Source of the DNA: an uncultured Nannocystaceae bacterium
GTDB lineage: Bacteria; Myxococcota_A; Polyangia; Nannocystales; Nannocystaceae
Direction of reading: 5' to 3'
Assembly: GCA_964352485.1 (NCBI GenBank)
Contig: CAYGTG010000001.1
Span: 1-35,675 of the forward strand
DNA length: 35,675 nucleotides
Shown here: positions 1,829 to 19,285 of the stretch, piece after piece
Layout of the letters: the number at the start of each line of letters is the position of its first letter
Numbering within the stretch: position 1 is the first letter of the stretch
Notes under the pieces: generated by a model
Database searches by the model: none
Seen by the model: the letters and a program-made list of their open reading frames with translations, nothing else
What the model was told of the DNA's origin: nothing
Made by a program: the position numbers and the translations under genes

Positions 1829-3967
<2,139 letters not shown>

Positions 3968-4031: not shown

Positions 4032-5477
4032 ATGGCAAAAGTGAAGTCTTGGAGAGAGGGCGCTGCGGGTGACCCTGGGTTTCCCGAAGAATTCGACGTG
4101 CTGCAAAACGCCGTCTTGCAGGTGACCGACATCAAGACCAATCGCAACAAGTACTACTCGATCGAGCTGCACGGCGCAGCCGGCCAGTTTCGCGTCTACA
4201 CCCACTACGGCCGCACCGACGATCTGGAGAACAACCCCGGCGCCGGTGTCCGCGAGTCTCGCTACTTCATCTCGCAAGCGGACGCGCAGAGCAACTACGA
4301 GAAGATCTACAGCCAGAAGACCTCGGCGTCCAAAGGGTACAAAGAGGTCAACCTCGCGTCGTCGAAGATCGGTTCGCACCGGCTGCGCGGCCAATCCAGC
4401 GGACACGTCGACAGCGAGACGCTCGAGCGCATGGAGGGCGACGGCAAAGCCAAGGCCAAGCCGATCATCAAGAAGAGCGAGCTTCACCAAGATCTCCAGT
4501 CCTTCGTGCGCCTGATCTACGACGAGGCCACGAACGCGCTGACGTCGACGGTCGCCGCCAAGATTACCGCGAACGGCATCGAGACACCGCTGGGCGTCCT
4601 GACGCTGGGCCAGATCGACAAAGGTCAGGAAATTCTCGACGAGGCCTACGCGCTGTTCAAGGGCAGCCAGTCGCTCACCGAGAAGAAGCGCTCCAAGCTC
4701 ACCGATCTCAGCGGTGACTTCTACACGATGATCCCCCACCGCATCGGTCGCTCGCGCGCGGCCGCCATGCAATCGGTGATCGACACGCTCGAGGAGTTCT
4801 CAGCGAAGACCGAAACCCTGCAGCTGATGCGCGACATGCTCAAGGTCAGCGGCGGGGAAGACGGGGCAAGCGTCCTGTTCGAAGACGGGATCGACAGCAA
4901 ATACAAGGCACTCGGATGCGAGATCGGCTGGGTCCCGCCTGATAGCGGCAAGTTTGCCGAGCTCAAAGAGTTCGTCGAGCGTTCGCAGGTCAAGTCCGAT
5001 CGCATCAAGGTCAAACGGCTGTACTCACTGCGCCGGTCCGCCGAGCACGAAACCTACGCCGAAGGTCTAGGCAACCATCAGCTGCTGTTTCACGGCTCCC
5101 GGGGGAAGAACTGGGTGGGGATCCTCTCCCGCGGGATCTTGCTCCCCAAGGTCGTCGTGACCCTCGGGGTCAACCGGACGGACGCCGGGTGGCTCGGCAG
5201 CGGCATCTACTTCGGCAATGCCGCCTGCACCTCGCTGTATTACACCTCGCCCGGCCGCCGCAAAACGAGGATGATGGCCATCGCCCGGGTCGCGCTGGGG
5301 AAGACCAAAGAGTTCCGCAAGATCACCTACGGGATCGACGGGCCGCCCGCGGGCTACGACAGCTGCCACGGCATTCGGGCAACGAAGAAGACACCATCGC
5401 AGTTCGAAGACGACGAGTTGGTCGTCTACCGCTCCGAGCAACAACGCCTCGAATACTTGGTCGAGTACACCGCGTAA
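4032..5477 (+). CDS. PARP-like poly/mono(ADP-ribose) polymerase (WGR + PARP regulatory helical + PARP catalytic domains)
   Basis: 481 aa. WGR domain: NKYYSIELHGAAGQFRVYTHYGR...KGYKEV. Helical regulatory domain: LQSFVRLIYDE...PLGVLTLGQIDKG. Catalytic H-Y-E elements: LLFHGSRGKNWVGILSRG, GSGIYFGNAACTSLYY, DELVVYRSEQ. Confidence 0.9.
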   Translation: MAKVKSWREGAAGDPGFPEEFDVLQNAVLQVTDIKTNRNKYYSIELHGAAGQFRVYTHYGRTDDLENNPGAGVRESRYFISQADAQSNYEKIYSQKTSASKGYKEVNLASSKIGSHRLRGQSSGHVDSETLERMEGDGKAKAKPIIKKSELHQDLQSFVRLIYDEATNALTSTVAAKITANGIETPLGVLTLGQIDKGQEILDEAYALFKGSQSLTEKKRSKLTDLSGDFYTMIPHRIGRSRAAAMQSVIDTLEEFSAKTETLQLMRDMLKVSGGEDGASVLFEDGIDSKYKALGCEIGWVPPDSGKFAELKEFVERSQVKSDRIKVKRLYSLRRSAEHETYAEGLGNHQLLFHGSRGKNWVGILSRGILLPKVVVTLGVNRTDAGWLGSGIYFGNAACTSLYYTSPGRRKTRMMAIARVALGKTKEFRKITYGIDGPPAGYDSCHGIRATKKTPSQFEDDELVVYRSEQQRLEYLVEYTA

Positions 5478-5499: not shown

Positions 5500-6243
5500 A
5501 TGCGCATCAAAGTTGTACTGGTCGACGTCAACCCCGAGATGATCGCCGCCTGGCGCGAGACCTTCGAAGACAACCCGGAGGTTGAGATTCGTCATGGCTC
5601 GATGCTCGACCAAAAGGTCAGCGCCTGGGTCACCCCCACCAACGCCGCCGGAAACATGGATGGCGGCCTGGATGGGGTCATCAAAGGCTTTCTCGGCAAT
5701 GGCATCCAAAAGCGGGTTCACGCCGCGATCAAAGAGCATCACCAAGGCGCGATGCCGGTCGGCTACGCCACGTGCGTACCTTCGCAGCGCGAGGTGCCCC
5801 AGTTCTTGATCTCAACCCCAACGATGGTCGGTAGCTCCGACGACATCTCCGATGGGATGAATGTCGCACTCGCATGTGCGGCGGCGTTTCAGGCGGTTCA
5901 CCTGCAGCACAACAAGGAGCCGGGCTCGGTGCGTTCGGTTGCGCTGCCAGGGCTGGGCGCCAATACCGGGCGTACGCCTGTGCACATTTGCGCGGACCTA
6001 ATGTGGACGGGGTACGACCTGTTCCGCCAGCGTCAGTTCGCCACCTTCGCCGAAATGCGGCTTGCGCTCGAGGAGATTCTCGGCGACCTGGGGCCGGCCA
6101 CCAAGAAGGGCGAAGCAAAGGTCAAGGCCGGCGATGTCGCCAACGAAAAAGGTTTCGGCGCCCCAGCTCCTGCAGACGAGGAGTACGATTTCGAAGACAA
6201 CGACGCGCTCGAAGACTTCGACGACGAAGAAGACTTCGACTAG
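5500..6243 (+). CDS. Macrodomain protein (predicted ADP-ribose binding/hydrolase) with a strongly acidic C-terminal tail
   Basis: 247 aa, starting 22 nt after the PARP stop. Macro-type motifs: VTPTNAAGNMDGGLDGVI and VALPGLGANTGR. The tail is EEYDFEDNDALEDFDDEEDFD. Confidence 0.85.
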   Translation: MRIKVVLVDVNPEMIAAWRETFEDNPEVEIRHGSMLDQKVSAWVTPTNAAGNMDGGLDGVIKGFLGNGIQKRVHAAIKEHHQGAMPVGYATCVPSQREVPQFLISTPTMVGSSDDISDGMNVALACAAAFQAVHLQHNKEPGSVRSVALPGLGANTGRTPVHICADLMWTGYDLFRQRQFATFAEMRLALEEILGDLGPATKKGEAKVKAGDVANEKGFGAPAPADEEYDFEDNDALEDFDDEEDFD

Positions 6244-6281: not shown

Positions 6282-8813
6282 GTGATCGACCCGATCCGAC
6301 TGATTCGTCTGCCCACGGCTGACGGTGCTGGGCACCATCGCTGTGCGGTGGTTTCGGTCGAGCCCGCGGGCGCCGACGCCACGTGGATGATCCGCGTGGC
6401 GCGGGGCGAGACCTTCGCCGCGCTGGCGGGTGGAACCGCGTACGGACCGGTCGCGCAAGGAGACTTGCCGGACCAGATCGCCGCCTTGCTGAAGCAGGAG
6501 CTCGCGCAGGGGTACGTCCAGATCACGGCCGCCGAGCTCATCGAGGCCCTGCAGAGCAAGAACCCCGCCGCGCGAGGCCGGGCGGCGCAGCGGCTGGGGT
6601 GGCGGCGCGAAAAACGAGCGACGGCCGCACTGCTGATGGCGGCAGACAACGCGCGCGGAGATATCTGCCCGATCGTGGACGCCTTGGGGCGCATCGGCGA
6701 TCCCGCGGCGATCGAGCTTGCGCGGACCTACGCGTCCAAGAAGAATCTCTCGCGGCGTCGCAGCGGAGTCGAAGCGCTGCGCAACCTTGGGGACGCCGAA
6801 GGCTTGGCGGTCGCGCGCCAGGCCAGTCACCAGCGGCTGCCCTCGGCGGTCGCAGAAGTGCTGGGCAAGGCCGACGAGTCGCGCGTCACCAAAACGGCGA
6901 TCGCCGAGATCGAGACGGTGATCGCTGCCGAGGATCCCCGCCGCCTCGGCGCCATTGCGGACACGCTGTACGACCGCGACACGGCGCTGGCCAACCGCGT
7001 GGTGCGGCGCATGCTGACGCCGGCCGCGATCCGTGGGCCTCACCAGTGGCGCTACGCCAAGAGCATTCTCAAACGCTGCATGCTTCGCGAAGACGCGCCG
7101 ACTTTTGGCAAGCTCGCGCACACGATCGAACGCGCAGCGGTCGACTACCAGGGAACCACCGCGGTGGTAACCAGCGGCCTCGACGGGAAAAAGCGCTCAA
7201 CCAAGATCTTCGGGCCCAAGACGCAAGCCTACGTGCGTCGCGCGACGTGGCGCTACATGCGAGACCTGGCGCGCTATCGGCCCGAGCGCTACGTCGATGC
7301 GGCGGCCCAAGTGCTGTCCCACTACAGTACGGACGATGCGCGGCCAGCCAAGGGCGCCTACGGATCGTTTGCCGACGCGTTCCTGCTGCACCACATTCTG
7401 TACGGGCGCAGCACCCGACTGACGATGAACTGGCGATCGCTTCGCGCGCGCTTCGTGGGCTCTCATGCGGTCAAGGCCCCCGAGGGTGTCCGCGAAGAAG
7501 CGTTTCCCCAGCTGTGGGACGCTCACCCCGCGGCGTTTCTCACAGTACTCAGCGCAGCGCGGCTGCCGGTCGCGCAGGACTTCGCGGTTGCGGGGGTCCT
7601 TCGGCACCCCGAAGTCATGCAGCAGGCCAAGCTCGGTCTGCTGCTCAGCATCGCGGGGCGCGATCGCGTGGATGCGGCGGAGCTCGCCACGGCTGAACTC
7701 GACCGCCGGTTCCAAGCGAACCCCAGCGATTGGAGCCTCGTCACGGCGGTCCTTGGGCGCGGCATCGCGGCGCTGCGGGAGACGAGCATCGGGTGGTTGA
7801 CCCAGATCGCCACGACATGGGCGACCGATCCTGGCCGGCTCCTGCAGGCCCTGCGCGCCGCCGACGCAAAAGTGCGGACGCAAGCGAGCCGCGTTGCGAT
7901 CCCCTTGGTGGCTGTCGCCGCCCCCCCAACGCGGGAGCGCATCGCGACCGCGCTGCTGGAGGCCATCGCCCAAGATGAGACCCACCCCGGTGCCCACATG
8001 CCGCTGGTCGTACTCGCCCGCGAAGCTTTGGTCGCCGAGCTCGAGCCCCGCTTCACGCTCGAGGCGTTGATCGAGACGGTCCGCACCGGCACGGGTGCGA
8101 TGCGTCAGGTCGCAGGCTTCCTGCTCGGCCGTCGCCCGGGCGCCCTCGCTGTGCTCGGCCTCGAAGGCCTGGTCGGTCTGGCCAACCACGAACTCATCGC
8201 CGTCCGAGGCGCGGGTCATGCAATCCTTCGTGGCGGCGCCGCCCAGATCGCCGAGGACCCAGCCGTGCTGTACGCCTTGTGCGAGAGCGAGTGGTCCGAC
8301 ACTCGAGCGATCGCGTTCGAGTTGCTCGAGGGGCTGCCACTGTCGGCGCTGGGCCTCGACGGCGTGATCGGGCTGTGCGACTCCACGCGTGGGGAAGTCC
8401 AAGCCTTGGGTCGCACGCTGGTGCAGCAACACTTCCGCGAACTGGACGCGGACACCGTGTTGTTCCGCCTCGCAGAGCACCCGGACCAGGCGATGCGCAG
8501 TTACGCCCTGTCGCTGATCACCGCACACCTTCGCCCCGGCATGGTCCCCCTGGCACGGATCGACACCTTCGTTCGTGCCACGTTGTTCGACCTCCGTCCG
8601 CGCCGTCCGCTCAAAGTCGGGCTGCTCGACTTCCTGCGTGAACGTGGATTGATGGATGAGCGACAGGGCGAGCACGTCGCGGGGCTGCTCGGCGAGCTGC
8701 TGCGTTCGCACACCGTGTTCGACTTCCAGCGGGTGTCGCAGACCCTGGCCCTGATCCAGCTTGCGTTCCCCGCGGTGCGCAGCGACCTCCAGCTCCAGGC
8801 GGCCCAAGCGTGA
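6282..8813 (+). CDS. WGR-like N-terminal domain / HEAT-repeat protein (MolR-like family, function unknown)
   Basis: The frame is open from 5874, but the first 136 codons overlap the macro gene and read as Arg/Gly-rich junk. An in-frame GTG lies at 6282, 38 nt after the macro stop, with an alternative ATG at 6387. The N-terminus (IRLIRLP...WMIRVARGE...LAQGYVQI) looks like a degenerate WGR domain. HEAT/PBS-lyase-like repeats follow (NPAARGRAAQRLGW, DALGRIGDPAAIE, GVEALRNLGDAEGL), then a long helical repeat region. Confidence 0.7.
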   Translation: MIDPIRLIRLPTADGAGHHRCAVVSVEPAGADATWMIRVARGETFAALAGGTAYGPVAQGDLPDQIAALLKQELAQGYVQITAAELIEALQSKNPAARGRAAQRLGWRREKRATAALLMAADNARGDICPIVDALGRIGDPAAIELARTYASKKNLSRRRSGVEALRNLGDAEGLAVARQASHQRLPSAVAEVLGKADESRVTKTAIAEIETVIAAEDPRRLGAIADTLYDRDTALANRVVRRMLTPAAIRGPHQWRYAKSILKRCMLREDAPTFGKLAHTIERAAVDYQGTTAVVTSGLDGKKRSTKIFGPKTQAYVRRATWRYMRDLARYRPERYVDAAAQVLSHYSTDDARPAKGAYGSFADAFLLHHILYGRSTRLTMNWRSLRARFVGSHAVKAPEGVREEAFPQLWDAHPAAFLTVLSAARLPVAQDFAVAGVLRHPEVMQQAKLGLLLSIAGRDRVDAAELATAELDRRFQANPSDWSLVTAVLGRGIAALRETSIGWLTQIATTWATDPGRLLQALRAADAKVRTQASRVAIPLVAVAAPPTRERIATALLEAIAQDETHPGAHMPLVVLAREALVAELEPRFTLEALIETVRTGTGAMRQVAGFLLGRRPGALAVLGLEGLVGLANHELIAVRGAGHAILRGGAAQIAEDPAVLYALCESEWSDTRAIAFELLEGLPLSALGLDGVIGLCDSTRGEVQALGRTLVQQHFRELDADTVLFRLAEHPDQAMRSYALSLITAHLRPGMVPLARIDTFVRATLFDLRPRRPLKVGLLDFLRERGLMDERQGEHVAGLLGELLRSHTVFDFQRVSQTLALIQLAFPAVRSDLQLQAAQA

Positions 8814-10504
8814 ACATCGAGTTCAAATACGCGGGCCAAAGCGGCATTGTCAGCGGGCTGGGCGATGCCCGTGTGGCGTTCGCCACCAATACGTTGCGGG
8901 AGGCGGCATTCTTTCGCGGCGAATTGGCGCGCCCGCTCGTGCTTCGCGACGCACTGGCAGCGCTGCATCGCGTGGTGGTCAGCGACCTGAAGTACCGCGT
9001 GCGCGATCGGGTGGCGTTCAAGGCGTGGCTGGATGAACAAGACCAACAGTTCCTGCAGAGCCTGACCAACAAGTCCGAGGAGATCCGCCTCGAGATCGAG
9101 ACGCGCGAGACGAGGTTGGCCGAACTCGACGCCCAGCGATCCCAATTGATGCAGCCGTTTCGCCAGGCGCGAAAGAAGTACTTCGAGTACGCCTACACCG
9201 AGCAGTACGAACTGGAGTATGTGCTCGACCCGGTGATTTCCATCCATCCCGACGAGCTCTCCTTTGAGGCGTTTTCTCGTGACGAGAGCAGCTATGCCCG
9301 CGTTTCGCTCAAGTACGACCTGTTCGCAAAGATCGACGAGTTCGCGTGCGGCACCACCAACGTCGACTTTTCGCATCGACTGCATCGGCAACTCGACCGA
9401 ATGCGCTCGTATCGCGATACACGCTTCGATGTCGACGCCGGCGGGTTTACAGTCACCAACCGCGGCGATGGAGGCCACCGCGAGAAGAAGATCGACGTCC
9501 CCGACAGCTGGGTCAACGGCTTCTTGCAGGTTCAGAGCGTGATGACGTTGGGTCTGCGCCGGATCCGGCTGGCGCAGATCGATCTGTTCAATATTTGTCG
9601 CTTCCTCTCGCGCTTCAAGGCGAAGAAATCGCCGCGAGCGCTGCGCTGGATCTTGAAGCCCGGTGAGCGCACCCAGGTCGTGTTCGAGCCGTGGGAGCAC
9701 ACGTTGACCTTGTCGCCGGGCTCGGTCTACGACGGACCCAAGGCGGAGTTCATCCGCACGTGGGGGCGCGACCGCCTGCAAGTCCTCGAGCGTCTGTTGC
9801 CGAGGGTCGAGCACGCGGACCTCTACCTCTCGGGCCACGGCATGCCATCGCTGTACGTCTGCGATCTGGGCGATGTCGTGTTCACCCTCGGACTGTCGGG
9901 GTGGACCGATCAAGACTGGACGGAGGGGGCCAGCTTCGAGCTGCTCGCGCGGCGTCTGGATGCCGACCCCGACACCCTCGCCGCCGTCGACGCTGCACTG
10001 CTCAAGGCTCGCTACGCTACACCGGCCGCGCTGGCCGAGACCACCGGTGTCGGCCAGCAAAAGGCCCGCGCGTGCCTGTCGTTCCTATGCCAATGCGGCC
10101 GCGCGATGTACGATCTGTCGACCGGCGTGTACCGCCATCGCGACCTCTTCTTCCGTCCGTTCAACGCCGCCAAGGCGATCGCACAGGCGACGAAGAAGAC
10201 CGAAGCGCTCGACCCGAAGGCCAAGGCTGCGCGCCAGGTCTTTGAGGCTGGCGGCGCCCGTTTCACTGCCCGCCGACCCCACAACGGCGGCTATAAGCTC
10301 ACCGGCAGCGTGCGCGGGACGGACGGGGAGCGCGTTCGTCCCCTCCTGTCGGTCGATGGCGAGGGGCAGATCGTCGAGGCGACCTGCACCTGCAAGACCT
10401 TCAAAAAGCACCAGATGACCAAGGGCCCTTGCGAGCATATGCTCGCGCTGCGGCTGGCCCACATGGAACGACTCGAATCAGAACAGGGAGGTACTTCTTC
10501 GTAG
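8810..10504 (+). CDS. SWIM zinc-finger family protein
   Basis: 564 aa. Its GTG start overlaps the upstream stop (GTGA), suggesting translational coupling. The C-terminal SWIM CxC...CxH motif is ATCTCKTFKKHQMTKGPCEHMLALRL. Confidence 0.85.
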   Translation: MNIEFKYAGQSGIVSGLGDARVAFATNTLREAAFFRGELARPLVLRDALAALHRVVVSDLKYRVRDRVAFKAWLDEQDQQFLQSLTNKSEEIRLEIETRETRLAELDAQRSQLMQPFRQARKKYFEYAYTEQYELEYVLDPVISIHPDELSFEAFSRDESSYARVSLKYDLFAKIDEFACGTTNVDFSHRLHRQLDRMRSYRDTRFDVDAGGFTVTNRGDGGHREKKIDVPDSWVNGFLQVQSVMTLGLRRIRLAQIDLFNICRFLSRFKAKKSPRALRWILKPGERTQVVFEPWEHTLTLSPGSVYDGPKAEFIRTWGRDRLQVLERLLPRVEHADLYLSGHGMPSLYVCDLGDVVFTLGLSGWTDQDWTEGASFELLARRLDADPDTLAAVDAALLKARYATPAALAETTGVGQQKARACLSFLCQCGRAMYDLSTGVYRHRDLFFRPFNAAKAIAQATKKTEALDPKAKAARQVFEAGGARFTARRPHNGGYKLTGSVRGTDGERVRPLLSVDGEGQIVEATCTCKTFKKHQMTKGPCEHMLALRLAHMERLESEQGGTSS

Positions 10505-10519
10505 ACGGAGCGTCAGCTC
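10501..10519 (+). repeat. Retron a1 inverted repeat (left arm)
   Basis: gtagacggagcgtcagctc. It overlaps the TAG stop of the SWIM gene (10502-10504). Pairing with the a2 side extends to 21 bp using 10499-10500. Confidence 0.8.
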
Positions 10520-10582
10520 GATCAAAAGCTCAGCAACCCGCACGGTGTTACGCCGTGCTTGCCGATTTGCATCTCATTCGTC

Positions 10583-10696
10583 ACGAGCCCGTTCGGCACC
10601 ATCGGACGGTCGGTAGCCCCGGCCCTAGCTGGGTTGGTACCGCCGGTCCCCGGGCCTTCGGGCTACCCACCGTCCGCGTTAGTGGAACGGTCTCGT
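10583..10696 (+). repeat. Long imperfect inverted repeat (predicted msd/msDNA stem-loop)
   Basis: The outer arms 10583-10594 (acgagcccgttc) and 10685-10696 (gaacggtctcgt) match at 11 of 12 positions. The inner arms 10603-10619 (cggacggtcggtagccc) and 10660-10676 (gggctacccaccgtccg) match at 16 of 17. A further ggccc/gggcc pairing lies inside the apical 40 nt. Confidence 0.7.
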
Positions 10697-10716
10697 CCTG
10701 GGACTGTACGTGAGCT

Positions 10717-10735
10717 GAGCTGACGCTTCGTCTAC
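10717..10735 (+). repeat. Retron a2 inverted repeat (right arm)
   Basis: gagctgacgcttcgtctac. Its reverse complement differs from a1 at one position, which gives a G-U pair in RNA. Confidence 0.8.
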
Positions 10736-10788
10736 GACAAAGCACCTCCCCCATTTCCACCATCTCCGCCATCTTCATTATCTCCGTC

Positions 10789-12174
10789 ATGGCCACCGAC
10801 GAAAAGTCCGCGTTGTACAAGCAGCTCGTCGAGCAGGCTGACCCCTGGCTGGTGCTCGAGCGCATGCGCGAGCTGGGGTTTTGGCCCGAGGATGAATCGA
10901 TCCCCGAGGAGAGTCCGCCCGCCGCCAAAGAACGCGTGCGGCTGGACGACGAGCTGCAGCGCTTGCGTTCCAAGGGCACCACCGTGGCCGATCCCGACGC
11001 GGCGCTGCAAAAGGAGCGGATCCGTCGCTGGAAGGAGAGCAAGAAGCGGCGCGCGCTGGCCCGGGCCGACCGCATGGCGGAAGCCAAGAAGCGGGCCGAG
11101 GCCTGGGCAACCTGGTCCAAAGTATCCTATGTCCACGCCGGCGCCGGGGTGAGCGGTGGCCTCGAAGGCCGAGACAGCGATGCGGCCCGGCTGGCGCGAC
11201 ACGAACTGCCCTTGCTGAGCCGGCCCGAAGAACTGGCCGACGCGATGGGAGTGCCGCTCCAGAAGCTGCGGTGGCTGACCTTCCATCGGCGCAGCGTGAC
11301 GCTGGTGCACTACCACCGCTTTGCGATTCCGAAGAAGACCGGCGGCCAGCGACAGATCAGCGCGCCCAAGCCAGCGTTGGCTCGGGCACAGCAATGGATC
11401 CACGACAACATCTTGGCGCGGGTCGCCCCTGAGGATCCAGCGCACGGCTTTGTTCCCGGTCGCGGCGCTCGCACCAATGCGCTGCCCCATGTCGGCCGCG
11501 CCGTCGTGGTCAACCTCGACTTGAAGGACTTCTTTCCAACGGTTGGGTTTCGCCGGGTCAAGGGGTTGTTCGCGCAGCTGGGGTACGCCGAGTCGGTCGC
11601 GGTGGTGTTGGCGTTGCTCTGCACGGAGCCGCCGCGCGTTCAGGCGGAGATCGACGGGCGGGTGCTTCATGTCGCGCTCGGTGATCGCGTTTTGCCGCAA
11701 GGCGCATGCACCAGTCCCGCGATCACAAACTGCATCTGCCGACGGCTCGATCGTCGGTTGCGAGGCATGGCCGCGCACTCAAACTTCACGTACACCCGCT
11801 ATGCCGACGACCTCACCCTTTCCGGTGACGACCCTGGCCGTTTGGGAGGGTTGCTCGGCGCCGTCCGGCGCGTCGTTGGCGAGGAGGGCTTTGTCGTCAA
11901 CGAAGCGAAGACGCGGGTGATGCGTCGTGCTCGGCGCCAGGAAGTCACGGGGCTCGTCGTCAATGACAAGGTGGGACTGTCGCGAAAGCAGCGGCGAACG
12001 CTACGGGCCATGCTGCACAACGTCGCGCGCAATGGTCTGGCGGCCGAGAATCGCCACGGACACCCAAAGTTCCGCGAGTACCTGCAGGGCATGGTCGCCT
12101 ATGTGTCCGCTGTCGACCCCGACAACGCTGGGCGTTGGCGTGCGGCTTTGCGCGATGCCTTGCACCCTTCTTGA
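10789..12174 (+). CDS. ret: Retron-type reverse transcriptase with a myxobacterial-style N-terminal extension
   Basis: 461 aa. RT blocks: FAIPKKTGGQRQISAP, VVVNLDLKDFFPTV, LPQGACTSPAITN, and YTRYADDLTLSG (YADD box). It also has the retron-typical VTG block (RQEVTGLVVND). About 140 aa of charged, helical sequence precede the RT core. Confidence 0.93.
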   Translation: MATDEKSALYKQLVEQADPWLVLERMRELGFWPEDESIPEESPPAAKERVRLDDELQRLRSKGTTVADPDAALQKERIRRWKESKKRRALARADRMAEAKKRAEAWATWSKVSYVHAGAGVSGGLEGRDSDAARLARHELPLLSRPEELADAMGVPLQKLRWLTFHRRSVTLVHYHRFAIPKKTGGQRQISAPKPALARAQQWIHDNILARVAPEDPAHGFVPGRGARTNALPHVGRAVVVNLDLKDFFPTVGFRRVKGLFAQLGYAESVAVVLALLCTEPPRVQAEIDGRVLHVALGDRVLPQGACTSPAITNCICRRLDRRLRGMAAHSNFTYTRYADDLTLSGDDPGRLGGLLGAVRRVVGEEGFVVNEAKTRVMRRARRQEVTGLVVNDKVGLSRKQRRTLRAMLHNVARNGLAAENRHGHPKFREYLQGMVAYVSAVDPDNAGRWRAALRDALHPS

Positions 12175-12215
12175 TCCCGAGCTTGATCCCGAGCTTGATC
12201 CCGAGCTTGATCCCG
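12170..12215. repeat. 12-nt tandem direct repeat (cttgatcccgag, about 3.8 copies) between the RT and ARH genes
   Basis: Copies of cttgatcccg start at 12170, 12182, 12194 and 12206. The first contains the RT stop codon, each copy carries a GATC, and each carries a TGA in the RT frame. Confidence 0.9.
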
Positions 12216-12224
12216 CGCGTTCTC

Positions 12225-13367
12225 ATGTCCAAAAAAGAACAGCTCACATTTTTGCAGTCCGAGCCGGGTCATGACGCGGGAGAAGACGGTCCCCCGGCCG
12301 GCGATGGCTTGCGGGATGATGGCTTGGCACAGGACGCCCCCGCGGCAGGCGCACCGTCGCAGGCCAAGATCATTCCCGAGCTGGACTGGCTTCCGCCTGC
12401 CCCCGCGCTCGACGCGATTGTGGGCCACCCGCGAACCAACCGGATGGCGGGCGCGGTGCTCGGCGGTGCGATCGGCGACGCGATAGGACACCCAACCGAG
12501 TTCATCGGATCGCTGGCACGGATTCACGAGGAGTACGGCCCCGACGGCGTGACCGGCTTTGAGCTTTTTTGGGAGCGAGACGGTCGCCGCTTCGCGCCGT
12601 ATACCGACGACACACAAATGGCCGAGGTGGTTCTTCGCGCCCTGCTGCAGGGGCGCCACGAGGGGGCCGATCTCGACGCGACCATGCGAATGATGGCCAC
12701 GGGCTTCATCCGTTGGAGCGACCATCCGCAGGGAGGTCATCGCGCCCCGGGCAACGCGTGCCTGAGTGGTTGCCGAGCATTGGCCCACGGCGCGCACTGG
12801 TCCGAAGCGGGGGGGGCGACCGCCGGTGGCTGCGGGTCGGTGATGCGCGCGTACCCCTTTGGTCTGGTCTTCTCTGGGGACCTCTCCAAGGCAGAGCGGT
12901 GGGCCGTCGCGCACTCACGCCTGACGCACGGGGATCCGATTGCGCTGGCCGCTTCGGCGGCGATGGCCGTGGGCATGGCCCGCATCGTCTCAGACGACCC
13001 GCTGGACACCGTGATTTCCGAGATGGTCGCCGCCGCGTGTCGCTACAGCCCCAAAACGGCGGGAATGATGGCGCATGCGATCGACGATGCCCAATCGGGC
13101 GTTCCGCCCACGGTCACCCTGGACCGCTTGCGGGCGTGGGCGGCACACGAGGCGATCGCCTCTGCGGTCTACCTCTTGGCGCGCCATCCCGACGATCCTC
13201 GGGCGGCGATCCTCGAGGGCGCCAACACCCCCGGCGACAGCGACAGCATCGCGACCCTCGGCGGCGCGCTCGTGGGGGCCCGCGTCGGCCTCGCCGCAAT
13301 ACCGACCGATTGGGTCCGCGACATCGAACGCAGCGAGGTCCTCTTGGCGCTGGCCGCCAGCGTGTGA
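12225..13367 (+). CDS. ADP-ribosylglycohydrolase family protein (ARH/DraG-like)
   Basis: The ATG at 12225 gives 380 aa. The track ORF instead starts at a TTG at 12135 and reads through the repeats. ARH motifs: GAVLGGAIGDAIGHPTEF, FAPYTDDTQM, GDSDSIATLGGALVGA. An N-terminal Pro/Gly/Asp-rich extension of about 85 aa looks disordered. Confidence 0.88.
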   Translation: MSKKEQLTFLQSEPGHDAGEDGPPAGDGLRDDGLAQDAPAAGAPSQAKIIPELDWLPPAPALDAIVGHPRTNRMAGAVLGGAIGDAIGHPTEFIGSLARIHEEYGPDGVTGFELFWERDGRRFAPYTDDTQMAEVVLRALLQGRHEGADLDATMRMMATGFIRWSDHPQGGHRAPGNACLSGCRALAHGAHWSEAGGATAGGCGSVMRAYPFGLVFSGDLSKAERWAVAHSRLTHGDPIALAASAAMAVGMARIVSDDPLDTVISEMVAAACRYSPKTAGMMAHAIDDAQSGVPPTVTLDRLRAWAAHEAIASAVYLLARHPDDPRAAILEGANTPGDSDSIATLGGALVGARVGLAAIPTDWVRDIERSEVLLALAASV

Positions 13368-15510: not shown

Positions 15511-16359
15511 CTAGGGCGCATCCGGTTCCCCGAGAAGCCCGCCGAGGCTGATCTCCAGCTGGCTTCGCACCAGACGATCGATGCTCTCGAGTTCCTCGGG
15601 TGGAATTGCGGCCTGGGCCACCATGACCGCGTGCATGCGCTCCGTCAGCGAGGCCTTGGTCTTGCTGATCCAGCGAGCGACCGTCGCCCGGTGCACGCCG
15701 TAGACCACTCCAATCTTGTCGATGTTCAGCCCCTCGACGAAGTACATGCGAAGTACGGCGCGCTCCCGGTCCTCGAGCTCCGCGCACGCCTGCTTCAACC
15801 CTTTCGTGAGCACGGACGCGTATCGCTGCTTGAGATACTCCAGGTCGGTGGGAGCCCCTCCGGGAAACAGCACCGCGTCGGCCCATAGTAGTTCATCACG
15901 CTTCTCGCCACGCTTGGTCTCTCGAAGAAAACCCAGTCCGACCCGCGCCGCGGCGACGCGCACCCAGCCGATCAGCGGGCCCCGCCCTGCGTACGCGGCG
16001 ACGCGCGGCGCCGTTTCCCCGTCAGAGACCAGCAATCGAGCCCGCAATCGCTGCTGGGCCTCGTCCACAAACGCCGGATCGGAGTCGAGCCTGCGCAGCA
16101 CCGCGTCGGTTCGGCTGATGAACTCGGCCTCGAAGATCTTCAGCGCGATCGGGTGGCCCTTACCACATGCCCAAGCCAGAACGAGCTCGGCCCAGTGCAC
16201 CCCTTCGAGGTCGTCGACACCTCGGCTCTGCAAAGCGCTCGCGACGTCGGCCACGTCCAGGTTCAGCGTCGGCCAGCGGTCCGTGAGTTCGGACCACCGC
16301 GCCTGAAGTGCCTCTTGCACGATCTGAACGATACCATTGTCCGCCGCGCGAGCGCCCAT
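15511..16359 (-). CDS. ECF/sigma-70 family RNA polymerase sigma factor
   Basis: 282 aa. Region 4 HTH: RERAVLRMYFVEGLNIDKIGVVYGVHRATVARWISKTKASL. Region 2-like helices lie upstream. The start is uncertain, with an alternative GTG at 16323. Confidence 0.85.
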   Translation of the reverse strand: MGARAADNGIVQIVQEALQARWSELTDRWPTLNLDVADVASALQSRGVDDLEGVHWAELVLAWACGKGHPIALKIFEAEFISRTDAVLRRLDSDPAFVDEAQQRLRARLLVSDGETAPRVAAYAGRGPLIGWVRVAAARVGLGFLRETKRGEKRDELLWADAVLFPGGAPTDLEYLKQRYASVLTKGLKQACAELEDRERAVLRMYFVEGLNIDKIGVVYGVHRATVARWISKTKASLTERMHAVMVAQAAIPPEELESIDRLVRSQLEISLGGLLGEPDAP

Positions 16360-19285
16360 GACCGAGTCCGAAGATGCGCCACGAGAGTCGGAGTGTCCCT
16401 CCGCAGAGGCGCTTCAGCAGCTCGCGATGGGCGAGCTCGATGCCGACCGAGGGGCGCCGATACGCCGGCATATCGATCGCTGCGTGAGTTGTCAGACCGC
16501 AGTGGCTCAGCTTCTCCTGGGCAGTGAGGGGTCCCCCTCGTTCGCCACCCGCCGAGACTGGATCGGACAGACGATCGAAGGGCGGTACACCATCGTGCGC
16601 TGTGTGGGCATCGGCGCATCCGCAGTCGTCTACCAAGCGGCCGACCAGCGCTTGGAGCGGGACGTGGCGCTGAAGGTGATGCTGGCCCGCCACCCCGTCG
16701 AGGCGGAGACGCTCCGGCGGCGGTTGCTCGCAGAGTCAAAGGCCATGGCCGGACTCCGTCACCCCAACATCGTCACGGTGTTCGACGTCTTTGAGAACGA
16801 GGGGCACACCGTTGTGGTGATGGAGTTGGTCGTGGGGGAGACGTTTCGCGAGTGGATGCGCGACGCGTCCCGGACCACCCCGCAGATCCTCGACGCGTTG
16901 TCTCAAGCCGGACAGGGTCTCGCGCACGCGCATCGCGAAGGCTGGATCCACCGAGACTTCAAGCCAGAGAACATCCTGGTCGGCGCGGACGGCCGGGTTC
17001 TTGTCACGGACTTCGGCCTCGCGAAGCTCGGACCCACGGTCGCGACGATCGAGACCCGTGACTCCGAGCCCGCGTTGTTTCCGACGGACTCCGCACTCCG
17101 TACGCTGAGCGTCGTCGGAACGCCGGCCTACATGGCCCCGGAACAGTGGGCCGGCCGACCCGTCGATGCTCGCGCAGATCTGTTTGCGTTCGGTGTGACG
17201 CTCTACGAGGCTTTGTACGGCAAGAGGCCATTCGAGGCGACGGCGGCCGAAGAGCTCCAGTGGTTGAAGCTCGCAGGTGGGGTTCAGTTCCCCACCCAAA
17301 GCAAGGTTGCGGCGCGCCTGATCCAGCTCATGGAGCATCTGCTCCAACCAGATCCCCAGCAGCGACCGGCAACGATGAATGTGGCCCTCACGGGCCTGAA
17401 CGCGCGGAAGCGGGGGCGCCGGTGGCTTCTCCCTGCGGTCCTCGGCCTGACCACGCTGAGCGTGGTTGCGCTCAGCCCGTGGGGTCCGGTCCCGCAGGAC
17501 GAATGCTCCACGGCCACGAGCCAGGCGCTGTGGGACGCAGAGACTCGCGAAGCGGCCGCAGCGCTGTGGCAGGACGACGGCGGCTGGGTTCTGCTCGATG
17601 CAGCCTTGGCAAGCTACGCCCAGCGATGGACGGATGCATGGGCAAGCGTGTGCGAGGCGGAGTCGGACGCTGACAGCAGCGCGCTGCGACGGGCGTGTCT
17701 CAAAGAGCAGCTCAGTTGGGTCGCTTCGACGGTGGACCTCTTGCTCGAAGAACGGGTGTTGCCACAGCTTGCGATGTCGGCCATCCCAGCGACGAGTGTT
17801 TGCGAAGGACCGGGGATCGTCCCGATTCGACAGGTGCCCACCGACCCGATCCAGGTCGAGGTGCACCGCGAACTCCGAGCGGACCTCTTCGGCTTGTGGG
17901 CACTGGCGCTCGACCGGGAGTGTGGAGAGGCTCTCGAGCGAGCGCCAAGTCTCGTTGCTCGCGCCGACGCAATCGATGCTTCGTGGGTTCTGGCCGAGAT
18001 CCAATTCTTGATCGGCGAATGTTCGATTGTTCTGGGCCGGCTGGACCCCGCCAAGAGCGCGCTCGTCCGGGCCGCGGAGCTCGCGAACAACAGTGGCCAC
18101 GTTGGTGTCGCCACCGAGGCCTGGATGCGAATGGCGACCGTGAGCGTGCTCAACGATGCCGATGCTGATGCCGCGCGGGAGTACGCGGCGTTGGCCCAAG
18201 GAGCGCTCGAGAGCCTCGGCGAGGCTCCCTCTGCCCAGTTGCTTCGGGCAAAGCTGGCGGCAACCCGTTCGTCTATCGCGAGAACAGAACGCGACTTTGA
18301 GGCAGCAGAGCGCCTCGCAATCGAGTCGATCCGCCTCGCCCAGCAGTACGGACCGCTGCAGGTCGCTAGCTTTCGCGAAGACCTGGCCTTGGCATACTCG
18401 GAAACCGGCAGGCCCAAGGAAGCCGTGGCCATCCTCAGAGACGTGGAAGCGCTGTATCGCAAGCACGGCGACGTGGACGTGCTGGCGCTCAACACGGTCC
18501 AGCTCAACCTCGGGGGGACACTCTTTGACCTCGGTCAGCTGGACGAGGCTGAGCGCTACACGCGACTCGCGATCGAATCGGGACTGACGCTCGAAGGTGG
18601 GGAAGGGATGGCATCGGTCGCCCCCCGGCTCAACCTCGTGCAGATCCTGCTCACTGCGCAGAAAACGTCCGAAGCAGCCGACGAACTCACCGCTCTCGAG
18701 GCGGCGTTCGAATCCATGGAGGCCGTCCGGGAGACGGACCGCGTCTCGGCCGCTCAGTTTGGGGTGCAGCTCGCTTGGGGACGCTCCGACTGGGCGGGCT
18801 GCGTCGAGTTGGGACGCTCGACCGTGGAGCTTCCCAGCTTCGAGCGAGCGAGCGCCAGTGGCGTCAACACGACCACTCTGCTCGCGAGCTGCCTCCAGCG
18901 CGTGGGACGTCCCGAGGGAGCGCTCGACGCATCGAGGTCGCTGCTCGAGGCCCTCGAGGGCAGCGCCCTGCCGCCAGCGTTCTTCGTACTCGCCGAACAA
19001 GCAGCGGCCCGCGCCTTGTTGGACCTGGACCGTGCCAGCGAAGCGCAAGCGCTGCTCGAACGCGCGCAGGGCCGGCTGGAGAACGCCGAAGACACCTTTG
19101 CCCTGCTTCCGACCCTCCATGTCGACCTCGCGCGGTCGCTGTGGGCGATTGGGAAGACGAGCGAAGCCCGGCGACTGGCCACCCAGGCTTTCGCCGAGCT
19201 TCAGGCTCAGCCCGACGAGGAGTCGAGCGAGACACTTCGCTCGTGGGCGGGCGAGCGCGGCATCGCGCTTACGGCTATCGACTAG
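16337..19285 (+). CDS. Hanks-type Ser/Thr protein kinase with an N-terminal zinc anti-sigma (ZAS-like) motif, a TM segment and a TPR-like C-terminal region
   Basis: The track start at 16337 is a TTG, and the ATG at 16358 is more likely. It has HIDRCVSCQ (H-x3-C-x2-C). Kinase motifs: VALKVM, HRDFKPENILV, VTDFGLAK, GTPAYMAPEQ. The TM is WLLPAVLGLTTLSVVAL, followed by a long helical repeat tail. Confidence 0.9.
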   Translation: MSAARAPMTESEDAPRESECPSAEALQQLAMGELDADRGAPIRRHIDRCVSCQTAVAQLLLGSEGSPSFATRRDWIGQTIEGRYTIVRCVGIGASAVVYQAADQRLERDVALKVMLARHPVEAETLRRRLLAESKAMAGLRHPNIVTVFDVFENEGHTVVVMELVVGETFREWMRDASRTTPQILDALSQAGQGLAHAHREGWIHRDFKPENILVGADGRVLVTDFGLAKLGPTVATIETRDSEPALFPTDSALRTLSVVGTPAYMAPEQWAGRPVDARADLFAFGVTLYEALYGKRPFEATAAEELQWLKLAGGVQFPTQSKVAARLIQLMEHLLQPDPQQRPATMNVALTGLNARKRGRRWLLPAVLGLTTLSVVALSPWGPVPQDECSTATSQALWDAETREAAAALWQDDGGWVLLDAALASYAQRWTDAWASVCEAESDADSSALRRACLKEQLSWVASTVDLLLEERVLPQLAMSAIPATSVCEGPGIVPIRQVPTDPIQVEVHRELRADLFGLWALALDRECGEALERAPSLVARADAIDASWVLAEIQFLIGECSIVLGRLDPAKSALVRAAELANNSGHVGVATEAWMRMATVSVLNDADADAAREYAALAQGALESLGEAPSAQLLRAKLAATRSSIARTERDFEAAERLAIESIRLAQQYGPLQVASFREDLALAYSETGRPKEAVAILRDVEALYRKHGDVDVLALNTVQLNLGGTLFDLGQLDEAERYTRLAIESGLTLEGGEGMASVAPRLNLVQILLTAQKTSEAADELTALEAAFESMEAVRETDRVSAAQFGVQLAWGRSDWAGCVELGRSTVELPSFERASASGVNTTTLLASCLQRVGRPEGALDASRSLLEALEGSALPPAFFVLAEQAAARALLDLDRASEAQALLERAQGRLENAEDTFALLPTLHVDLARSLWAIGKTSEARRLATQAFAELQAQPDEESSETLRSWAGERGIALTAID

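Follow-up and report, generated by a model that had tools for sequence, protein, structure and literature searches.

The window analysed here is a 35,675-nt stretch of a contig from an uncultured Nannocystaceae bacterium (GenBank assembly GCA_964352485.1, contig CAYGTG010000001.1, positions 1 to 35,675 of the forward strand). On its plus strand it carries a row of genes for a WGR-PARP_reg-PARP protein, a macrodomain protein, a HEAT/ARM-repeat protein, a SWIM zinc-finger protein, a reverse transcriptase (RT) and an ADP-ribosylglycohydrolase (ARH). Between the SWIM and the RT gene lies a long inverted repeat around a structured interior, in which an earlier note on this DNA had seen an unannotated msr-msd locus with classical retron architecture. 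The fold, the covariation and the class of the RT all agree with that proposal. We hold with high confidence that positions 10486-10750 are the msr-msd noncoding RNA (ncRNA) gene of a type XIII retron and that the next gene, 10789-12174, encodes its RT.

The RNA upstream of the RT gene

The earlier note had measured a gap of 284 nt between the SWIM and RT genes and had found in it a 19-nt inverted repeat with a single G-U pair that extends to a helix of 21 bp. The SWIM stop at 10504 and the RT start at 10789 give the same gap, and the coordinates of the repeat were correct: 10501-10519 (gtagacggagcgtcagctc) is the reverse complement of 10717-10735 except for one G-U (G10508-T10728), and pairing of 10499-10500 with 10736-10737 completes the 21 bp in the minimum free energy (MFE) fold. 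The true arms are longer. A repeat search extended a1 and a2 to 10486-10519 and 10717-10750, i.e. to 34 nt each with 88% complementarity at a distance of 197 nt. This repeat ranked first among the inverted repeats within 400 nt across the 35.7-kb window, where the runners-up were 72-84% complementary. Folding of the region, a check that the earlier note had proposed, yielded -135.8 kcal/mol for 10495-10741 compared to -90.5 ± 4.5 kcal/mol for 200 dinucleotide shuffles, none of which was equally stable (z = -10.0). The fold also contains an inner 6-bp helix that was absent from the earlier description. AGCTCA (10527-10532) pairs with TGAGCT (10711-10716) and thereby prolongs a1/a2 past a 7-nt 5' bulge (10520-10526).

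Homology and structure were investigated with nhmmer profiles and RNAalifold. RT homologues number in the thousands in a protein search; the loci compared here (L numbers, with P numbers for RT homologue proteins) comprised 80 from reference genomes, the contigs of the four closest RT proteins (89, 78, 76 and 71% identity), three extra contigs and 80 metagenomic loci that were retrieved with the PARP as a query. Iterated nhmmer detected an msr module on the RT strand in 50 loci, in most of them directly upstream of the RT. These loci belong to Myxococcota, Planctomycetota, Cyanobacteria, Acidobacteriota, Bacteroidota, Vibrionaceae and others. A hidden Markov model built from the distant canonical members alone had a single match in the window, at exactly 10533-10710 with an E-value of 3.5e-10. 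In close relatives with RTs of 71-89% identity the RNA core was almost unchanged, while the outer a1/a2 arms differed by multiple compensatory substitutions, e.g. GGTACTTCTTCG/CGACAAAGCACC vs GGTGATCCGCCG/CGGCGGATCACC.

The cores of 41 loci, from 7 nt before a conserved G to 6 nt into a2, were combined in an alignment termed A5. RNAalifold predicted 34 pairs, with double-sided changes in 27 of them. By pair count 91.1% of the cells were paired in these cores, compared to 41-45% when the partners were slid by 1-3 columns. The covariation score was 0.569 vs 0.09-0.15 in the slid controls, and not one of 500 shuffles matched the observed value on any measure. The four innermost a1/a2 pairs covary over the 41 loci (CG/UA/AU/GC) and are 98% paired. 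The short hairpin at 10540-10558, which the earlier note had taken for an msr stem, was found again as helix 3; 99.7% of its cells are paired, compensatory changes affect both sides of 4 of its 8 pairs, and the closing pair occurs as GC, CG, AU or UG. Likewise, the long imperfect hairpin at 10583-10696 that had been proposed as the msDNA (multicopy single-stranded DNA) stem-loop was recovered as 10583-10619/10660-10696, and its base, middle and apical helices (helices 4, 6 and 7) all covary. In the linker, columns C54, C57, A58 and C59 of A5 are invariant. Frequent G-U pairs identify the plus strand as the selected strand.

The outer arms are unrelated in sequence across loci and were unalignable by MAFFT. 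Because of this, they were tested by folding every a1 with every a2 instead of counting columns. Cognate duplexes averaged -48.3 kcal/mol and non-cognate ones -22.1 kcal/mol over the 41 loci; for the window the cognate duplex reached -64.5 kcal/mol with a non-cognate mean of -23.6 kcal/mol. In 35 of the 41 loci no foreign a2 was better than the cognate arm, and the exceptions were close relatives. Taken together, the homologous loci show the covariation on which the earlier note had made its proposal depend, for the a1/a2 helix, for the msr hairpin and for the long msd hairpin.

The best PADLOC model for the RT was RT_XIII with 530 bits (E 1.5e-159, residues 4-455), followed by a model with 360 bits. 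All top PADLOC matches were retron RT models; the group II intron maturase model reached 57 bits against a cut-off of 300. Pfam RVT_1 matched residues 180-389 (1.4e-20), and alignment to the RT of Mx162 showed the motifs NALPH (NAxxH), VTG and YADD. Type XIII is defined by RTs of clade 10 together with a SWIM protein (cluster 114), a WGR/HEAT-ARM protein (cluster 216) that in most members has a WGR-like domain at its N-terminus, and an ncRNA type of its own, and Mx162, Sa163, Mx65 and Ne144 are placed in it (Mestre et al. 2020, NAR 48:12632). The window RT is 42% identical to that of Mx162 (E 3e-79) in a 419-aa alignment that takes in part of the N-terminal extension, and 48% identical to that of Mx65. 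The PADLOC model, the motifs and these identities locate the RT in the retron clade that holds the four myxobacterial retrons named in the earlier note.

The accessory proteins point in the same direction. The SWIM protein matched SWIM_XIII over its full length (616 bits, 1.2e-185) and Pfam SWIM at residues 516-547 (1.3e-06). The HEAT protein matched HEAT-ARM_XIII (230 bits, 1.1e-68) and WGR_XIII (319 bits, 2e-95), the latter at model positions 93-534 only. Neither Pfam nor a WGR profile search detected a WGR domain in the HEAT protein of the window, and the WGR sits on the neighbouring PARP instead. Thus every testable feature that defines a retron and type XIII was found at this locus, except that the HEAT protein is without the N-terminal WGR.

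Variation of the RNA gene in number and position was seen elsewhere in the family. Tandem msr modules, two or three upstream of a single RT, occur in several loci of Bacteroidota and Acidobacteriota: three copies in L070 (2261-3060), three msr matches in L046 (7236-7795) and two each in L013 (1032-1524), L016 (7288-7827) and L036 (910-1400). In L013, L016 and L070 the tandem copies are complete msr-msd units, each with its own complementary a1/a2 arms. A direct comparison of the L070 copies showed nearly identical msr parts next to msd stems of differing sequence. In such loci several different msDNAs may be made by a single RT. Three further loci (L008 3303-3506, L072 5434-5626, L075 2238-2444) have the ncRNA at a distance of 2.5-5.7 kb from the RT on its upstream side, where it precedes the accessory genes or is placed between them. 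Finally, a third RT clade in a tree of 101 RTs (L010-L012, L015, L018-L020, L031, L047-L073) has the SWIM gene upstream, with no HEAT, WGR, PARP, Macro or ARH partner detected and no msr module found by nhmmer. The ncRNA and the partners of this clade may be of another kind.

Predicted priming guanosine and msDNA

The earlier note had assigned the branching guanosine to G10520, directly 3' of the repeat arm. This assignment was not borne out. G10520 sits in the 7-nt bulge, which is not conserved; its sequence and length vary even where the RTs are 71-89% identical, with e.g. CCGCAAAG and ACGCCA in relatives of 71-78% RT identity. The invariant G is G10533; all 41 aligned cores have a G followed by a C at this place, and so does the msr alignment of 50 loci. 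In all loci a helix ends directly 5' of this G; it measures 6 bp in the window and runs unbroken for 34-45 bp up to the invariant G in L003, L023 and L053. CAGC, the context of G10533, is also the context of the priming G in Mx162 and Sa163 (review, PMC6868368). Retrons in general carry this G at the 3' end of a1, mostly within (T/C/G)AGC, have one to three msr hairpins before a long msd stem-loop, and make an msDNA that is attached to the RNA through a 2'-5' phosphodiester bond. Because G10533 is invariant across about 50 loci, stands in CAGC and lies directly 3' of the helix, the aligned sequences make it very probably the branching G, in place of G10520.

On the template side the alignment is similarly constrained. 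C184 of A5, which corresponds to C10709, is kept in at least 90% of the 41 loci and G185 (= G10710) is invariant. The priming G and the template G are 174-181 nt apart in 39 of the 41 loci, and in the window this spacing is 177 nt (G10533 to G10710); L008 and L075 have a longer spacing of 189-192 nt. The 197 nt that the earlier note had given as the room for msr and msd are therefore correct as the distance between the arms, while the functional spacing is 177 nt.

The extent of the msDNA was estimated from a known retron. For Sa163, sequence text obtained by optical character recognition (OCR) puts the end of the 163-nt msDNA about 8-9 nt beyond the msr hairpin on its 3' side. With this end rule, the predicted msDNA of the window runs from C10709 to about 10566 and would comprise about 144 nt, by analogy for both its start and its stop; a length of about 130 nt results if the total length is used for scaling. 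Its 5' end is predicted to be GTACAGTCCCAGG... (complement from 10709 downwards), and the predicted 144-nt DNA folds as a long hairpin with -37.6 kcal/mol. Compared with the long msDNA that the earlier note had expected in analogy to the myxobacterial retrons, the predicted length is about 144 nt with a lower estimate of about 130 nt, not about 162 nt. Within the upper msd hairpin a motif at 10640-10650 (A5 columns ~120-131) is kept across phyla with the consensus TTCCGGTTTGG and the window sequence CTGGGTTGG, and the stem sequences around it vary freely. The motif may serve for recognition, either of the RNA or of the msDNA.

With canonical type XIII loci the window shares the gene order HEAT-SWIM-ncRNA-RT, the N-terminal extension of the RT, the consensus RNA structure, a G-to-template spacing of 177-179 nt and the ncRNA profile match mentioned above. 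Unlike these loci, it has a HEAT protein that is about 200 aa shorter and without an N-terminal WGR, additional genes for the WGR-PARP_reg-PARP and the macrodomain protein before HEAT and for the ARH after the RT, and the priming context CAGC where the majority has TTGC. Mx162 (Retron-Mxa1, Myxococcus xanthus) and Sa163 (Retron-Sau1, Stigmatella aurantiaca) resemble the window RNA in a1/a2 arms of about 34 nt, in the priming G in CAGC directly 3' of a1, in one dominant msr hairpin with a similar G/T-rich loop and in a long msd hairpin. Their msDNAs have 162-163 nt, and a difference of the window RNA is the 7-nt bulge that interrupts its a1/a2 helix; their RTs are 73% identical to each other and about 42% to the window RT. 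The spacing from the priming G to a2 is about 212 nt in Sa163 and 178 nt in the window, i.e. 34 nt shorter here. Because of an RNA similarity limited to the msr hairpin (see below), a spacing shorter by 34 nt and an RT identity of only 42%, the RNA is, judged by sequence, a member of the widespread type XIII ncRNA family outside the Mx162/Sa163 subgroup.

Two other retrons are of use for comparison. Ec86 (Retron-Eco1) likewise has an a1/a2 helix that ends at the priming G, msr hairpins followed by an msd hairpin, and a C-G directly 5' of a2 on the template side (...CTGAC-G-TAAGGGTGCGCA). The msDNA of Ec86 begins opposite the C of this C-G. Ec86 differs from the window by its RT clade, its type (II-A), its NDT-like effector, a1/a2 arms of about 12 nt, an 86-nt msDNA and a TAGC context. 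Ne144 (Retron-Nex2, Nannocystis exedens) belongs to the same RT clade (Mestre et al. 2020), and the predicted msDNA of about 144 nt coincides with it in length. The nearest named relatives of the window RT are metagenome-assembled genomes of Nannocystaceae with 67-71% identity, and no N. exedens protein was among the 120 best RT matches. Based on the predicted msDNA length and these Nannocystaceae relatives, a relation to Ne144 is plausible.

Several observations weigh against the assignment as a retron RNA or against its details. An Rfam scan of the region gave nothing at the gathering thresholds and noise alone at E-values up to 10; no curated Rfam family covers the RNA. The family profile matched Sa163 and Mx162 at the msr hairpin only (E ~1e-4 to 1e-3 with three sequences), and the Mx65 RNA did not match it. 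The RNA sequences of Mx162, Sa163 and Mx65 were taken by OCR from a preprint supplement and are possibly off by a few bases. The alignment to these retrons that the earlier note had suggested thus produced a weak similarity at the msr hairpin of Mx162 and Sa163, while the rest remained unaligned. The tie to the experimentally studied members is one of RT, accessory genes and architecture, not of RNA sequence, and because of the weak similarity the msr and msd boundaries were transferred by architecture. RNAalifold, moreover, predicts a helix 2 between G10533-C10534-A10535 and a UGC that follows the msr hairpin. Covariation in this helix is slight, and its formation would be in competition with an unpaired priming G. 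We infer the positions of the branch (G10533), of the start (C10709) and of the stop (near 10566). Finally, a scan of 10200-10900 for promoters and terminators found none, and in particular no sigma-70-like promoter before a1. Because such a promoter is lacking and a1 overlaps the SWIM stop codon, the RNA is likely co-transcribed with the upstream genes. A terminator or attenuator was rejected as an explanation of the element. A coding function of the open reading frames 10429-10713 (+) and 10581-11120 (-) was rejected as well, since conservation proceeds by base pair and with indels.

The msr-msd could still be organized as it was first drawn, with the helix ending at 10519/10717, branching at G10520 and the msDNA copied leftwards from 10716. 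G10520 does directly follow the outer helix of 21-34 bp, and in the window AGCTCA (10527-10532) can pair with 10716-10721 as well as with 10711-10716, so that the inner helix has a competing register. Yet it is the inner helix that covaries and abuts the equivalent of G10533 in all loci, the C-G motif with its near-invariant C and invariant G is located 5' of 10711 and not of 10717, and the variable bulge around G10520 contrasts with the invariant G in CAGC. We therefore consider the original drawing quite improbable. Even less probable is that the element, as a structured leader, as a regulatory RNA or as a degenerate retron RNA, governs expression of the RT or the operon and has ceased to be reverse transcribed. 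Such a role would suit an element that has no promoter of its own and resides inside an operon between SWIM and RT, and no msDNA has yet been shown for this subclade. But the terminal helix, the invariant G, the opposing C-G and the msr and msd hairpins are under strong purifying and compensatory selection across phyla, the RT retains the catalytic YADD and the retron motifs, and Mx162, Sa163, Mx65 and Ne144 of the same RT clade make msDNA experimentally.

Long terminal inverted repeats around some 200 nt are also what a mobile-element remnant or an intergenic palindrome would display, such as terminal repeats of a miniature inverted-repeat transposable element or an insertion sequence, or a REP-like element, that came to lie upstream of the RT by chance. 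However, arms that are wholly different between loci and nevertheless complementary, around a conserved interior, are the opposite of the transposon pattern. The element is present as a single copy in the window, it is nearly always found on the RT strand upstream of a type XIII RT, and its G-U pairs point to selection at the RNA level. We regard this origin as next to negligible and favor the view that 10486-10750 is the msr-msd gene with G10533 as the predicted priming guanosine. The resulting anatomy is listed in Table 1 together with the genes of the locus.

Table 1. Positions of the genes and RNA elements at the retron locus (window coordinates)
Feature	Position	Strand	Basis or remark
WGR-PARP_reg-PARP protein (bacterial PARP)	4032-5477	+	Pfam domains WGR, PARP_reg and PARP catalytic
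Macrodomain protein	5500-6243	+	Pfam Macro 2.5e-08; same position in related loci
HEAT/ARM-repeat accessory protein	~6282-8813	+	start approximate, reading frame open from 5874; N-terminus placed by alignment to the L084 gene
SWIM zinc-finger protein, primary type XIII accessory protein	8810-10504	+	PADLOC SWIM_XIII, Pfam SWIM
Gap between SWIM gene and RT	10505-10788		284 nt
a1 outer arm	10486-10519	+	first 19 nt overlap the SWIM gene end; TAG stop 10502-10504 inside
5' bulge GATCAAA, contains G10520	10520-10526	+	7 nt; unpaired in MFE and duplex folds
a1 inner arm AGCTCA	10527-10532	+	pairs with 10711-10716; ends directly 5' of the predicted priming G
Predicted priming (branching) guanosine, context CAGC	10533	+	branching itself inferred
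msr stem-loop GCACGG-TGTTACG-CCGTGC	10540-10558	+	covarying hairpin (helix 3)
Conserved linker with invariant TCAC (10581-10584, overlapping the msd stem-loop)	10559-10582	+	predicted msr 3' end/msDNA 3' end ~10566-10573
msd long stem-loop, template of the msDNA hairpin	10583-10696	+	repeat search (10583-10619/10660-10696), covariation
3' end of the msd template	10697-10710	+	C10709 near-invariant, G10710 invariant, directly 5' of a2
a2, inner arm TGAGCT 10711-10716 and outer arm 10717-10750	10711-10750	+	repeat search, duplex folds
Retron reverse transcriptase, 461 aa, N-terminal extension typical of its clade	10789-12174	+	Pfam RVT_1, PADLOC RT_XIII
ADP-ribosylglycohydrolase (ARH/DraG family)	12225-13367	+	Pfam ADP_ribosyl_GH 2.9e-59; start probably ATG 12225

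PARP, macrodomain and ARH genes around the retron

The gene order PARP-Macro-HEAT-SWIM-ncRNA-RT, usually with an ARH gene beside the RT, recurs as a cassette in L004-L007, L057, L084, L087 and L088, of which L088 is the complete genome of an isolate, Tautonia plasticadhaerens. Of the metagenomic PARP loci, 27 extend far enough downstream, and 15 of these contain it. L102-L104, L108, L111, L114, L115, L120, L123, L126, L127 and L143 share the arrangement. The position of the ARH gene varies: it may follow the RT, lie on the opposite strand or be located upstream of the PARP (L103/L104). In a neighbour-joining tree of 101 RTs all PARP-, Macro- or ARH-linked RTs form one clade with the window RT, and the loci with a WGR-HEAT protein form a separate clade. 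RT and ARH also occur fused in single proteins of about 650-780 aa (P0035, P0063, P0078, P0091, P0098, P0120; L086 and L087 10001-12343). In L086, which has such a fusion, a PARP and a macrodomain gene were not found within 10 kb. The gene linkage of the retron with the PARP cassette is strong.

The cassette is distributed over Myxococcota and Planctomycetota with flanking genes that differ between loci. The earlier note had compared the base composition of the RNA with that of its surroundings and had linked it to an ancient, vertical inheritance of myxobacterial retrons. The first part holds, with a GC content of 0.635 in the RNA region within the 0.59-0.70 of the neighbouring genes. A purely vertical inheritance, on the other hand, is not established, as the cassette is found in different phyla next to different flanking genes.

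The HEAT proteins of canonical loci measure about 1030-1120 aa and have an N-terminal WGR domain. Those of the PARP-linked clade measure about 740-840 aa, and the PARP is the sole carrier of a WGR there. As a separate observation, some canonical loci contain a second gene in which a WGR is fused to a beta-propeller, as in L043 1562-6062 (Archangium minus) and also in L024, L030, L035, L038 and L063.

The PARP has an intact H-Y-E triad with the motifs LFHGS, GIYFG and DDELVVY. Among PDB entries it matched the human catalytic regions of PARP4 (5.7e-44) and of PARP2 and PARP1 (~1e-22 to 4e-24); no PADLOC model matched the PARP or the ARH. With other bacterial PARPs, i.e. those of Herpetosiphon aurantiacus and Clostridioides difficile, it shares the WGR, helical and catalytic domains and the H-Y-E triad. 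Adjacent writer and eraser genes are likewise known from bacterial PARPs that are accompanied by PARG or macrodomain erasers. The difference is that here the PARP is part of a conserved cassette with a DNA-producing retron.

A characterised bacterial PARP requires DNA for activation (PMC8120803). In reviews, the function and targets of bacterial PARPs are listed as unknown, and retrons do not appear. Conversely, PARP, macrodomains, glycohydrolase and NAD are unmentioned in Mestre et al. 2020, where clade 10 has a single effector type, and likewise in a 2026 survey preprint. Our literature searches found no paper that links retrons with PARPs or describes the cassette.

In this subclade the retron system probably includes the neighbouring genes for WGR-PARP, macrodomain protein and ARH. 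More tentatively, the window may carry a PARP-coupled subtype of type XIII. The WGR would be supplied by the PARP; the msDNA, or its loss or modification in phage infection, would switch the PARP on via the WGR; ADP-ribosylation or consumption of NAD+ would be the output; and macrodomain and ARH would reset or restrain it. We rate this scheme in its entirety as a serious possibility, somewhat short of an even chance. Within it we hypothesize that the msDNA controls the PARP through the WGR domain.

Other genes of the neighbourhood were inspected as well. LigA, an NAD-dependent DNA ligase with a BRCT domain, is encoded at 1829-3955 (-) as the divergent neighbour of the PARP, and the same arrangement is seen in L084 (1-1250). 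LigA was rejected as a cassette member: it recurs solely in the closest relative (L084, on the same contig as L089) and is absent in L087 and L088. A 12-nt unit, TGATCCCGAGCT, is repeated in tandem with about 3.6 copies at 12172-12215, between the RT stop and the likely ARH start at 12225. Further downstream the window contains a sigma-70 family gene (15511-16359, -) and a gene for a serine/threonine kinase with TPR repeats (16337-19285, +). Both are typical myxobacterial content and have no evident link to the retron.

Proposed mechanism and significance

Based on the structural prerequisites, which were shown computationally, and on the chemistry of Mx162, Sa163 and Ec86, the following course of events can be proposed by analogy. 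The ncRNA would be transcribed, probably together with the upstream genes, and the a1/a2 helix would close with its outer (10486-10519/10717-10750) and inner parts (10527-10532/10711-10716). The RT would then bind the msr hairpin, prime from the 2'-OH of G10533, copy the template leftwards from C10709 and stop near 10566, a few nucleotides before it reaches the msr hairpin. Removal of most of the template by RNase H would leave a branched RNA-DNA with a DNA part of about 144 nt in the form of a long hairpin. The branched msDNA would remain bound to the RT and to partner proteins, and this msDNA-RT complex together with the co-evolving SWIM and HEAT proteins is presumably an anti-phage sensor and effector.

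With this RNA the type XIII retron family gains a further well-supported msr-msd gene, in itself of modest interest. Its corrected anatomy, with the predicted priming G at 10533, the predicted template start at C10709 and a spacing of 177-179 nt across phyla, makes experiments precise. The PARP-macrodomain-ARH context matters more than the RNA gene itself. Retron effectors that have been described include nucleases, NAD-glycohydrolase-like NDT proteins, TIR domains and proteases. For type XIII the classification paper lists SWIM and HEAT/WGR as the only partners (Mestre et al. 2020). If the cassette is functional, it would link a DNA-synthesising sensor to a DNA-activated ADP-ribosyl writer and its erasers, and the role of bacterial PARPs would become directly testable. 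If, in addition, the retron is coupled to the PARP in the way outlined above, bacterial PARPs would gain a concrete role.

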